DNA of 5,526 nt. Origin: a virus. Of this stretch, positions 2,842-5,526 are shown piece after piece. Position numbers and translations under genes: made by a program. Under the pieces are notes generated by a model that saw only the letters and a list, made by a program, of their open reading frames with translations, did no database searches and was not told the origin of the DNA. The stretch's first letter is position 1; the number at the start of each line of letters is the position of its first letter. The stretch lies in the UHGV virus genome UHGV-0328789, one strand, 5' to 3'.

Positions 2842-4050
2842 ATGAACTTCGAAGATCTACTGAAATTACTCGAAAAAGGAGAAGGTATTGCGAACCCTCT
2901 CGCTGGAGCCATAGGCAGCGCTTCAGGAATCCTCAATATGCTGGGCATAGGCAGGAGGAAACAGATAAGGCAGCAGAAAGAGATGGCAGAAAACGCAGCT
3001 AAAATAAATTACAAATACGGAGAGATGGCAGCGGAGAATGCATTCGAAAGGCAGCAGGTGTTATACAACAGAACCTACCAGGACCAAAGCTATGCCAACC
3101 AAGTCGCACAAATGGATGCAGCGGGATTATCTCCCGGCCTAATGTACGCCAAAGGAGGCGCTGGAGGCGGAGGAGCCGGATCAACAACAGGTGCTCCAAT
3201 GGGTGCAACAGGAGCGACCGGTGCAGGTGCAGCTGCCGATCCCAATGCGCAACTGCAGGCATTGATGTCGCTGCGACAGGTGCGAATGAATGAACGAAAG
3301 AATGAAGCTGAGATAAACCTGCTCAACACTCAAGCAAAAGCACTCGAAGCTGAAGCAGGCAAAAACAGAGAAGAAACCACGTCAATAATCGAAAAAAGAA
3401 TCTGGCAGGTAAAGCAGGAAATGTTCGAAGGCTGGAAGGGCTTTATCGACACGGCAAACCAACTATGGGACCAGATGGTGAAATGGCAGCCTACAGAGAA
3501 AACGACAATCGACGGCAAGGAAATCGAAATACCGAAATACTTTGAGATAGAGGATGACAAATTTGGCAAGATCATATTCGGAGAAGAGTCATTCCAGGGA
3601 GGCATGATGGCAGCTGAAAAACAAATCCTCGAAGGAACCGCGGCAATCAAAACTCTGGAAAGCATATATGCAGACAAAAAACTATCCGCAGAAATCAAAA
3701 AAATAAACGCAGACGCATGCAGTGGAATGGCCCAGGCGGCATATTATTACGCAGCAGGCAAAACCCAGGAAGCAGAAGCAAAAATGCTCGAAGTAAAAAA
3801 GAGAACCGAAGAAGCAACCGCAGATCTGCGGGAACTCCAATACTGGACCGAAATAGCAAACACAATCATCAAACTGGGGCAAGCGGTAGGAAATTTGGTA
3901 ATTGGAGGAAAAACAGGAAAAGTGATCAGAGAATACACAGAAAAAAGGATGAACGAAACTCCCCCCATGAACTCAACAATAGTAACGCAGCACTATGACG
4001 GAGAAATGAAATTTAAGGGAATGGACAAGAGTGCAACAACAAAATGGTAG
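2842..4050 (+). CDS. VP2: Minor capsid / DNA pilot protein VP2 (phiX174 H-like), 402 aa.
   Basis: The architecture is typical of microvirus pilot proteins. There is an N-terminal Gly/Ala-rich hydrophobic segment (GIANPLAGAIGSASGILNMLGIG), an internal Gly/Ala/Thr low-complexity tract, and a long Glu/Lys/Ala-rich coiled-coil-like region (NERKNEAEINLLNTQAKALEAEAGKNREE...). It is the second largest ORF and sits after VP1, as in gokusho-like and alpavirus-like genomes. It ends in a TAG-TAA double stop. Confidence 0.75.
   Translation: MNFEDLLKLLEKGEGIANPLAGAIGSASGILNMLGIGRRKQIRQQKEMAENAAKINYKYGEMAAENAFERQQVLYNRTYQDQSYANQVAQMDAAGLSPGLMYAKGGAGGGGAGSTTGAPMGATGATGAGAAADPNAQLQALMSLRQVRMNERKNEAEINLLNTQAKALEAEAGKNREETTSIIEKRIWQVKQEMFEGWKGFIDTANQLWDQMVKWQPTEKTTIDGKEIEIPKYFEIEDDKFGKIIFGEESFQGGMMAAEKQILEGTAAIKTLESIYADKKLSAEIKKINADACSGMAQAAYYYAAGKTQEAEAKMLEVKKRTEEATADLRELQYWTEIANTIIKLGQAVGNLVIGGKTGKVIREYTEKRMNETPPMNSTIVTQHYDGEMKFKGMDKSATTKW
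3154..3237 (+). repeat. Low-complexity Gly/Ala/Thr-coding tract inside VP2 (GGAGGGGAGSTTGAPMGATGATGAGAAA), with reiterated GGTGC / GGAGG(C) units.
   Basis: Visible directly in the sequence as ggaggcgctggaggcggaggagccgga...ggtgctccaatgggtgcaacaggagcgaccggtgcaggtgcagct. It is locally GC-rich relative to the A-rich genome. The antisense ORF 3090..3329 is just its Pro/Ala-rich mirror image. Confidence 0.6.
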
Positions 4051-4089: not shown

Positions 4090-5361
4090 ATGTGCCTATA
4101 TCCAAGTATCATCGAGAATCCAAAATACGCCAAATCGAACGAAAACAGCAAAGGAGTAAAAGACCGCCGTCTAAGGTGGATACAAATTCCATGCGGACAC
4201 TGCGAAGAATGCAGGCGCGCAAAAGCAAATGAATGGAGAGTAAGATTAATGGAAGAAATAAAATCTAATTCAAAAAACATTATATTTGCAACGCTGACAT
4301 TCTCCGAAGAAAGCCTAAAAAAATTAGAATATGACGAAAAAGAACCAAACAAAGCACCTCAAAAAGCAATCAGCCTATTCAGAAAACGATGGTGGAAAAA
4401 GTACAAAAAACCACTTAAACACTGGCTAATCACAGAACTGGGACATGACAATACCAAAAGAATACATCTGCACGGCCTCATATGGACAGAGCTAACAGAG
4501 GAGCAATTCGAAAAAGAATGGGGGTACGGCTGAATATTCTTCGGTTATAAAGTAAGTGAAAGAACAATAAACTACATCGTAAAATATGTAACAAAGAGAG
4601 ACGAAGCTAATCCTGAGTTCGACGGAAAAATATTCACTTCAAAAAAAATCGGAATAAATTACATAAACAAAAACACACTCAGAAGACACAGATATCAAGA
4701 CAAATTCACAGAAGAAACGTATAAAACAGAATCCGGAATAAAAATCGCATTACCAATATATTACAAACAAAAAATATGGACGGATCAGGAACGCGAAGCC
4801 CTCCGAATTATAAAGGAGGAGAAGCAAACAAAGTACTACAACAAAACTCCTATCAAAGTAGAAACAATAGAACAGTACAGGGAATATGTAAACGCAGTAA
4901 AATACTGGCAATCAATCAAAAAATATGACGGAAAGAGAAAAGAAGGAAATATGCAGAGGGTATGCAGACCTACTCATAAAAAAACAACAACTAACTCACG
5001 AACTATGGAAAACAGAATTTGGAATCAAGAAGTTGGAAGAGATATTAACACGAAACAAAATAATGATGCCAACAGAGGAGGAAGAGCCATCGGAGACAGA
5101 AGTAACAATCTTGTGAAACTAATCGGCGCCGAAAGAGTATCTCAACGAAACTTCAAATACGAAGGAACATACTACATAACAGAAGATGGAGAAATATACA
5201 GTAAAGAATACGTAGAAACTCAAAAAACACAAAGAACCGGCGTCAGCTTCTACGAAATAGCTGACTGGTTATACAACGAGAGCAAGCAAATGTACGAACC
5301 TACTATCAGAAGAATAGTAATAATCAAAATCACAAACACTCAATTATCACTAAACCTATGA
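4090..5361 (+). CDS. VP4: Rolling-circle replication initiation protein VP4 (phiX174 gene A superfamily I Rep). The frame is open for 423 codons and is interrupted by one in-frame TGA at codon 148.
   Basis: It has a CGHCEEC Cys/His cluster (4192-4212). Motif I FATLTF is at 4285-4302, motif II HLHGLIW (HuH) is at 4465-4485, and motif III YIVKYVTK with paired catalytic Tyr is at 4573-4596 (phiX A has YVAKYVNK). Motifs I and II lie before the TGA at 4531-4533 and motif III lies after it, in the same frame. There is no ATG in that frame between 4534 and 4950. The gene ends with TGA at 5359-5361, overlapping the ATG of the next ORF (ATGA). Confidence 0.85.
4531..4533 (+). other. In-frame TGA inside Rep (context GGC TGA ATA; protein ...EKEWGYG*IFFGYKVSERTINYIVKYVTK...).
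   Basis: Read directly from the sequence. Frame 1 is continuous from 4090 to 5361 apart from this codon. The other five genes terminate with TAA or TAG only. Confidence 0.9.
4925..5116 (+). CDS. Candidate overprinted ORF of 63 aa in the +1 frame relative to the Rep 3' region (MTEREKKEICRGYADLLIKKQQLTHELWKTEFGIKKLEEILTRNKIMMPTEEEEPSETEVTIL).
   Basis: It has an ATG start, and the frame is open from 4901. It uses A-ending codons like the bona fide genes and has very few T-ending codons. Over the same nucleotides the Rep frame translates to a low-complexity N/R/T/K-rich stretch. This is weak evidence, because any frame of an A-rich sequence gives K/E/R-rich peptides. Confidence 0.2.
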   Translation: MTEREKKEICRGYADLLIKKQQLTHELWKTEFGIKKLEEILTRNKIMMPTEEEEPSETEVTIL

Positions 5362-5526
5362 ATGAAAAAGTAAAGAAAATCGTAAAATGGATCGCGGTAA
5401 TAGCAGCTGCGATCGGCGCAGCAGCCGCTGTAATCATTGAGCAGGGATGCACTAACAAGTATCATCTCAAAGCAAATGGCATCAAAGTCGACACAATCGA
5501 AGTATCAAAATCAATAAAAATTAAAT
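5358..5526 (+). CDS. Small membrane protein, partial at the window end (MNEKVKKIVKWIAVIAAAIGAAAAVIIEQGCTNKYHLKANGIKVDTIEVSKSIKIK...). It is 56 aa if the window is circular, because T5526 plus A1 A2 form TAA.
   Basis: Its ATG overlaps the Rep TGA (ATGA), suggesting translational coupling. It has a basic N-terminus followed by one Ala/Ile-rich predicted transmembrane helix of about 18 aa. The helix is encoded by a locally GC-rich segment that is clearly non-random against the A-rich background. It is the only coding option for this otherwise unassigned 170 nt of a compact genome. Confidence 0.5.
   Translation, partial: MNEKVKKIVKWIAVIAAAIGAAAAVIIEQGCTNKYHLKANGIKVDTIEVSKSIKIK

Follow-up and report, generated by a model that had tools for sequence, protein, structure and literature searches.

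Microviridae genomes are circles of about 5.5 kb that encode a capsid protein of the F type along with a pilot protein, and their Rep (VP4 of gokushoviruses, protein A of phiX174) is an HUH endonuclease that carries motif I, the HUH motif and the two-tyrosine motif in that order. In phiX174, a second Rep-derived product in the same frame, A*, is made by internal initiation and retains the catalytic motifs. Protein A1 of Qbeta is made by passing the stop codon at which the coat gene naturally ends; this stop is conserved, as is the extension, a protein that is required. In code-4 microviruses such as SpV4, TGA codons are found throughout the genes, and stop-recoded phages often carry suppressor tRNAs. 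In recoded gut phages (codes 4 and 15), in-frame stops are numerous across genes and are described as concentrated in late and lytic genes (bioRxiv 10.1101/2021.08.26.457843). UGA can also be read at a low level by the normal tRNA-Trp, as in classical opal mutants; in E. coli, competition between Trp-tRNA and RF2 at UGA leads to about 2-4% readthrough (PMC10570021).

The stretch of DNA analysed here (the window, 5526 nt) is a complete circular microvirus genome with a G+C content of 41%. Like other Microviridae genomes, it has genes for an F-type major capsid protein (Pfam PF02305, at 313-2358) and, at 2842-4050, for a DNA pilot protein that matches several PHROG families named 'pilot protein for DNA ejection'; an HUH rolling-circle Rep starting at 4090 (PF23343; phrog_942) follows, and there are several small ORFs besides. 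The circle was cut exactly, because the last ORF is completed by bases 1-2 and the sequence across the junction is read straight through in relatives, many of which are circular assemblies with k-mer terminal overlaps. Whole-window megablast against GenBank phages returned a 58-nt match only and the nearest named phages in a protein-mode VP1 search were faecal microviruses with at most 56% VP1 identity, so named phages represent this clade poorly. The exact VP1 of the window was looked up as well and is not on record. Closer unnamed relatives are plentiful in IMG/VR, ENA and Logan assemblies, and the nearest of these (L070-L074) share 93.5-93.9% identity with the window over the whole genome. 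The sole match in the genome collection was a microvirus contig of 5.7 kb from an assembly of Acinetobacter lwoffii; it is free, not an integrated prophage, and may be contamination. All genes other than Rep are intact and full length, so the window is not a degraded copy with other disabling lesions, a situation that a preliminary description of this DNA had named as one that would refute its reading. The best explanation for the genome as a whole is a gut or faecal-type microvirus that uses the standard bacterial code and encodes an ordinary HUH rolling-circle initiator.

This Rep differs from other Microviridae Reps in having a TGA at codon 148 and in lacking a terminator near codons 286-304, where it is fused to the next gene. 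The features of the frame up to codon 285 are as follows.

4090-4530, + strand: N-terminal 147 codons of Rep, with the Cys cluster, motif I and HUH motif II
4192-4212, + strand: Cys cluster CGHCEEC, in the N-terminal part of Rep
4285-4302, + strand: motif I, FATLTF, upstream of the TGA
4465-4485, + strand: HUH motif II, HLHGLIW, upstream of the TGA
4531-4533, + strand: in-frame TGA at Rep codon 148 (frame from ATG 4090), in place of the clade's TGG (Trp)
4534-4944, + strand: Rep core, codons 149-285, in the same frame, without a start codon of its own and holding motif III
4573-4596, + strand: two-tyrosine motif III, YIVKYVTK, downstream of the TGA in the same frame

Motifs I, II and III (YxxKYxxK) stand in order, as in other Microviridae Reps, and all are in frame 1. 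In an alignment of homologues, T68, T70, F71, H126, H128, G129, K165, Y166 and K169 are invariant and Y162 is nearly so. The match to PF23343 (REP_ORF2-G2P) spans the stop (residues 65-170; 43.4 bits against a cut-off of 27.8), and both halves of Rep match phrog_942 collinearly (E = 5e-22 for the N-terminal and 1.6e-4 for the C-terminal half). What the preliminary description had read from the sequence, a TGA at 4531-4533 between motifs II and III of one Rep frame, is confirmed, with the TGA inside one continuous Pfam/PHROG domain, and its placing of motifs I and II upstream and motif III downstream was correct. It had also counted 139 downstream codons without an ATG: there is indeed no in-frame ATG in codons 149-287, but the frame remains open for 275 codons past TGA-148, up to the TGA at 5359, and comprises 423 codons in all. 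An uninterrupted ORF with all motifs is therefore absent from the window because of TGA-148, whereas the relatives are open up to codon 285, and the argument that an active Rep requires passing the TGA is logically true.

A Rep that is naturally two polypeptides, with the motif III part initiated or reinitiated separately, is barely conceivable. Beyond the interruption itself nothing speaks for it, while the part of the frame from the TGA to motif III contains no ATG, GTG or TTG, and the single Pfam domain runs across a site at which every relative has one continuous ORF; homologues in which Rep ends here and a separate ORF supplies motif III, also named earlier as a check, were not seen. Clade-wide pN/pS in frame 1 is 0.11 over 4090-4530 and 0.16 over 4534-4924, against about 1 in the other two frames, and the low values in both halves therefore indicate one translated protein in the relatives. 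On the best explanation, TGA-148 is not a natural split of the gene.

Codon 148 is TGG in 43/43 related genomes fetched, among them 37/37 close IMG/VR genomes and the nearest Logan/ENA genomes L069, L070 and L073, and a scan of all fetched loci (L001-L074) revealed no true exception. An apparent AGA at this codon in L008 was an end-joining artefact of the contig's 54-nt terminal overlap and was discarded. A Rep search returned 1293 homologues, and the column at this site is Trp in every aligned best match of at least about 50% identity, with V or F in two distant ones. Across the best 120 of the 1293 homologues it is occupied by W (52), Y (18), N (13), K (11), F (9) and H (6), and Gly is not among these six commonest residues. 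The residue conserved at the position of the TGA, which the preliminary description had left to be established by alignment, is thus W. The Rep shared by L070-L074 (P0126) has 147 N-terminal residues identical to those of the window followed by W, and the window's N-terminal haplotype accordingly exists elsewhere with W148.

Downstream of codon 285, the Rep frame runs through the following features.

4925-5116, + strand: ORF-x, 63 aa, in the +1 frame relative to Rep, overlapping the Rep tail, with a TGA stop at 5114
4945-5004, + strand: Rep tail, codons 286-305, unconstrained in the Rep frame
5005-5361, + strand: ORF-y, 118 aa, in Rep's frame, with its TGA (5359) in an ATGA overlap with the ORF-z start
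5358-5526, + strand: ORF-z, 56 aa, with a hydrophobic helix and its TAA completed by bases 1-2 across the junction

Rep stops are polymorphic in the relatives, falling at codon 286 (TGA), 289 (TAA or TAG), 297/298 (TAA) or 304 (TGA). The window has sense codons (GGA, CAG, AAA and AGA) at all four of these usual sites, and its Rep frame is consequently fused to ORF-y. The same fusion is intact in the nearest relatives (P0001, P0126 from five contigs, and P0144) and in a cluster of 370-aa calls. In relatives, ORF-y is among the protein calls on its own, at 118 aa (P0136, P0143 and others), and its ATG opens two codons after the usual TGA-304 in Rep's own frame; its frame-1 pN/pS is 0.41 (5116-5358). 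Over 4925-5004, pN/pS is 0.68 in frame 1 versus 0.21 in frame 2 (the +1 frame), and this segment is not under selection in Rep's frame. The frame of ORF-x is favoured by codon-position variability as well as by its pN/pS of 0.21, with an ATG that is conserved in 32/32 relatives and a frame that is open in 37, and ORF-x has no match in PHROG. ORF-z has a pN/pS of 0.20 in its frame. At the opposite end of the gene, the Rep start is GTG in 12 of 32 aligned relatives. Database Reps of 232-250 aa begin at M54 and lack the Cys cluster because of such GTG starts, and these truncated entries include GenBank 'MAG TPA: Replication associated protein' records.

One option put forward for TGA-148 was a host that reads TGA as an amino acid (Trp under code 4 or Gly under code 25), so that Rep would be translated normally. 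The position of the TGA at a Trp column fits code 4, and standard-code phages have been predicted to infect code-25 hosts (PMC10746230). The window also shares with recoded phages an in-frame stop inside an essential phage gene; unlike them, it has one such TGA and no tRNA, and its relatives have none. As stated in the preliminary description, Trp elsewhere is always TGG (31/31 in the genes counted, of which 14 are in VP1 rather than the 'about 20' that had been given), and these genes contain no further in-frame TGA. A survey of related contigs for in-frame TGA in other genes, suggested at the same time, found none in about 53,000 aligned codons of the relatives' orf1, VP1, orf3, VP2, ORF-x, ORF-y and ORF-z. 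In L002, a 'TAA' was flagged in VP2, but it arose from the joining of imperfectly redundant contig ends and was discarded. Genuine premature stops in VP1, VP2 or Rep are absent from all 43 relatives, which makes lesions of this kind uncommon in the clade's assemblies.

TGA is also used as a terminator. The statement that it ends 0 of 5 other genes was wrong, as ORF-x (5114), ORF-y (5359) and the Rep of most relatives all end in TGA. The ORF-y TGA, within its ATGA stop/start overlap, is kept in 32/32 relatives; the ORF-x TGA is found in the window and in 8/31 aligned relatives; and among the 36 relatives with a complete Rep alignment, the first stop of Rep is TGA in 23 (codon 286 in 17 and codon 304 in 6). 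Were TGA a sense codon, however, ORF-x and ORF-y would lengthen by 2-3 codons only, and terminator usage alone therefore does not exclude a host that decodes it. The Rep-ORF-y fusions that such a host would be expected to make in many relatives do, moreover, exist as intact ORFs. What is decisive on the code is instead the conservation of TGG at codon 148 in the relatives. Together with the lack of any other in-frame TGA, the conserved TGA terminators, a G+C content of 41% and, for code 25, the lack of Gly among the six commonest residues of the homologue column, this leaves a TGA-decoding host very unlikely, and the option is not supported.

Every base of the window was compared with about 43 aligned relatives, and nine were absent from all of them (33, 276, 881, 990, 1202, 2206, 3402, 4077 and 4533), position 4533 being counted as the ninth after removal of the L008 artefact. 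The A at 4533 is the sole window-private base within Rep codons 1-285. As 5.5% of the possible single-base coding changes in the genome make a stop, the probability of at least one stop among nine private changes is about 0.40 without selection. The nine changes have a transition/transversion ratio of 4:5, compared with about 2.3-3.0 for ordinary differences; this difference is not significant and is weakly suggestive of errors among the private changes. A degenerate 26-mer with the TGA fixed had no match in IMG/VR or in JGI metagenome contigs, an exact look-up among 153 billion gene positions gave no record of the 147-aa product, and the best protein matches of the Rep search include no Rep fragment of about 147 aa.

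Nothing downstream of the stop looks decayed, and Rep codons 1-285 hold no private substitution besides the TGA, so the lesion is either very recent or not real. In a pairwise comparison with L070, the window has 0 nonsynonymous changes upstream of the TGA and 8 downstream. Relaxed selection downstream (pairwise pN/pS 0.46 vs 0) was considered as a reading of this difference and rejected, as the differing residues are all found in other relatives.

No tRNA and no Rfam match were found in the window. No hairpin follows the stop, and the 90 nt around it fold no better than shuffled sequences (MFE -8.4 kcal/mol, z = +0.51). Selenocysteine at codon 148 has the in-frame UGA in its favour and nothing more. 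Given this fold (z = +0.5), the missing Rfam match and a column of W, Y, N, K, F and H in which Cys is not among the commonest residues, that reading is effectively refuted already, and its probability is negligible. Programmed leaky termination, another of the options in the preliminary description, is likewise not supported, since the stop occurs in one sequence only and has no stimulatory structure. The idea of two Rep-derived products in one frame recalls phiX174 A/A*, but the short product of the window would be N-terminal, without the catalytic Tyr, and is not conserved. Set against readthrough of the Qbeta A1 type, the coding sequence downstream is conserved (pN/pS 0.16), but the stop is present in the window only and interrupts the core of the enzyme.

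A real and viable allele could instead be leaky without any programming, with percent-level Trp insertion throttling the Rep dose and the 147-aa fragment modulating replication. UGA is the leakiest stop codon, its reading by Trp-tRNA gives the wild-type residue, and the remainder of the genome is intact; Rep is catalytic, so that small amounts may suffice. The TGA at 4531-4533 has A as its 3' neighbour, and this UGAA context is one of relatively weak RF2 binding (PMC5373646). Against such an allele, it occurs in one sequence and in none of the collections searched, it lacks a stimulatory RNA structure, and nothing points to selection maintaining it. In a complete mutational scan of phiX174, moreover, 99% of nonsense mutations were lethal (bioRxiv 10.64898/2026.07.25.740675), which favours a defective genome or an error over a fit variant. 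We regard a dose-throttling allele of this kind as improbable. Slightly more doubtful still is a version in which the allele is real, dominant in the sample and kept by a host tRNA-Trp that decodes UGA-A, giving low-dose wild-type Rep along with a truncated DNA-binding fragment. Variants of tRNA-Trp with 4-bp anticodon stems that read UGA have been reported across diverse bacteria (PMC13092985), and a host with unusually high UGA readthrough would possibly help the TGA allele to survive.

By far the most probable reading is that TGA-148 is a private TGG>TGA point substitution of a conserved Trp codon, and neither recoding nor programmed readthrough. The remaining option of the preliminary description, a defective genome or a TGG read as TGA, is supported by the TGG in 43/43 relatives and the private A at 4533. 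On a rough reckoning, we infer that the change is somewhat likely to be real, as a defective or at best leaky mutation; a sequence error, arising in base-calling, assembly or amplification, is a substantial possibility that falls short of even. As a mutation, TGA-148 would be a G>A change at the third position of the Trp codon, and very recent. From what is established about termination, RF2 would stop most ribosomes after 147 residues, yielding a product with the Cys cluster and motifs I and II that lacks the catalytic Tyr and should be inactive for nicking and joining. A few ribosomes could insert Trp at the UGA by means of the normal Trp-tRNA(CCA), which would restore the exact wild-type residue and give full-length Rep, here in the 423-aa form fused to ORF-y. 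TGG>TGA is the one nonsense mutation whose natural misreading gives back the wild-type residue, so a real variant could make a little normal Rep. Such unprogrammed leakiness of UGA is the only plausible rescue of Rep for a real variant.

If the TGA stands in the consensus of a well-covered assembly, it would be the dominant allele in the sample, and a lethal mutation would not be expected to dominate unless biased amplification, complementation or leakiness came into play. When viromes are amplified by multiple displacement, small circular ssDNA is over-amplified in a stochastic manner, and a rare defective molecule can in this way become the consensus. Protein A of phiX174 acts mainly in cis, which would limit rescue by co-infecting wild type.

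These results recommend caution with metagenome-assembled phage genomes, in which a lone in-frame TGA is not evidence of an alternative genetic code. Standard decoding is shown here by 43 relatives and by the genome's own terminators, and if the site were called recoded, the genome would be mislabelled, for instance as code 4, and so would its host. Annotation of the clade gains more from the variable Rep terminator, the Rep-ORF-y fusion, ORF-x and the GTG-truncated entries than from the TGA. If the allele is real and dominant, it would be a modest natural case in which the leakiness of tRNA-Trp lets a phage tolerate an opal codon where Trp belongs, and if the leaky reading is true, it would provide a natural example of a microvirus whose Rep dosage is tuned by a leaky opal codon.

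One relative of the circular genome, L068 (NZ_JACWEU010000076.1), is a complete 5673-nt microvirus from this clade and is about 85% identical to the window in nucleotide sequence. It is a free scaffold rather than an integrated prophage in the assembly of an Acinetobacter lwoffii isolate, where it could represent either a contaminant or a phage that the isolate carries, and its presence there is no firm host assignment. Besides position 4533, eight further bases of the window were found in none of the aligned relatives.

33, 276, 881, 990, 1202, 2206, 3402, 4077: other window-private bases

Several of these (276, 1202, 3402 and 4077) fall at sites that are invariant in 42-43 relatives; the change at 1202 substitutes Leu for Gln in the major capsid protein VP1, and 4077 precedes the ATG of Rep by 13 nt. 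Transversions account for 5/9 private changes, while among ordinary differences transitions outnumber transversions about 2.3-3.0 to 1. The private changes weakly hint at errors in the sequence or at deleterious variants that arose only recently. A separate intergenic feature was detected after orf3.

2716-2746: strong G+C-rich inverted repeat of 12 pairs, then a T run

This repeat (AAAGAGGGGGG ATATTCC GCCCCCCTCTTT) has a terminator-like score on both strands and may terminate transcription or belong to the replication origin.

At the window's Rep start site (4090), 12/32 aligned relatives feature GTG, which leads gene callers to begin at Met54. The resulting database entries, which include P0010-P0017 and P0122 (DAY06780.1), are 232-250 aa (or 370 aa) in length and lack the N-terminal Cys cluster. 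These Met54-start records represent a systematic mis-annotation of Rep in public records of the clade.

Two small ORFs were identified towards the end of the window, in addition to ORF-y (5005-5361).

4925-5116, + strand: ORF-x, 63 aa, +1 frame, overlapping the Rep tail
5358-5526 plus bases 1-2, + strand: ORF-z, 56 aa, with hydrophobic helix IVKWIAVIAAAIGAAAAVII

The ORF-x ATG is kept in 32/32 relatives and its frame is open in 37, with a pN/pS over 4925-5004 of 0.21 in the ORF-x frame versus 0.68 in the Rep frame. No match to ORF-x was found in PHROG or Pfam, and a family search with ORF-z likewise returned no match. ORF-z has a start codon that overlaps the stop of ORF-y (ATGA), a TAA stop that crosses the circular junction, and a conserved sequence (88% identity, pN/pS 0.20); it may encode a small membrane or lysis protein.

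Comparison of window positions 4945-5004 and 5005-5361 with relatives L001-L037 and L069-L074 showed that the Rep stop varies within the clade (codon 286 TGA, 289 TAA/TAG, 297/298 TAA or 304 TGA). No stop occurs at codons 286-304 in the window, its nearest relatives (homologues P0001, P0126 and P0144) or the 370-aa cluster, so Rep and the 118-aa ORF-y downstream of it share one open frame, for a fused product of 423 aa. Where this fusion is present, ORF-x is overlooked by gene callers. In 28/31 aligned relatives, codon 304 is TGA-A and the ORF-y ATG follows two codons on in the same frame, an arrangement that makes coupling at the natural Rep end by termination-reinitiation or readthrough conceivable.

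ORF-y itself is highly divergent among otherwise close strains (window 5005-5361 compared with L070/L073), with a pN/pS of about 1.0-1.2 for the window versus L069/L070, and the window allele is similar to that of another sub-lineage (P0144, P0136). Together, these two features suggest recombination and/or fast evolution of this small protein.
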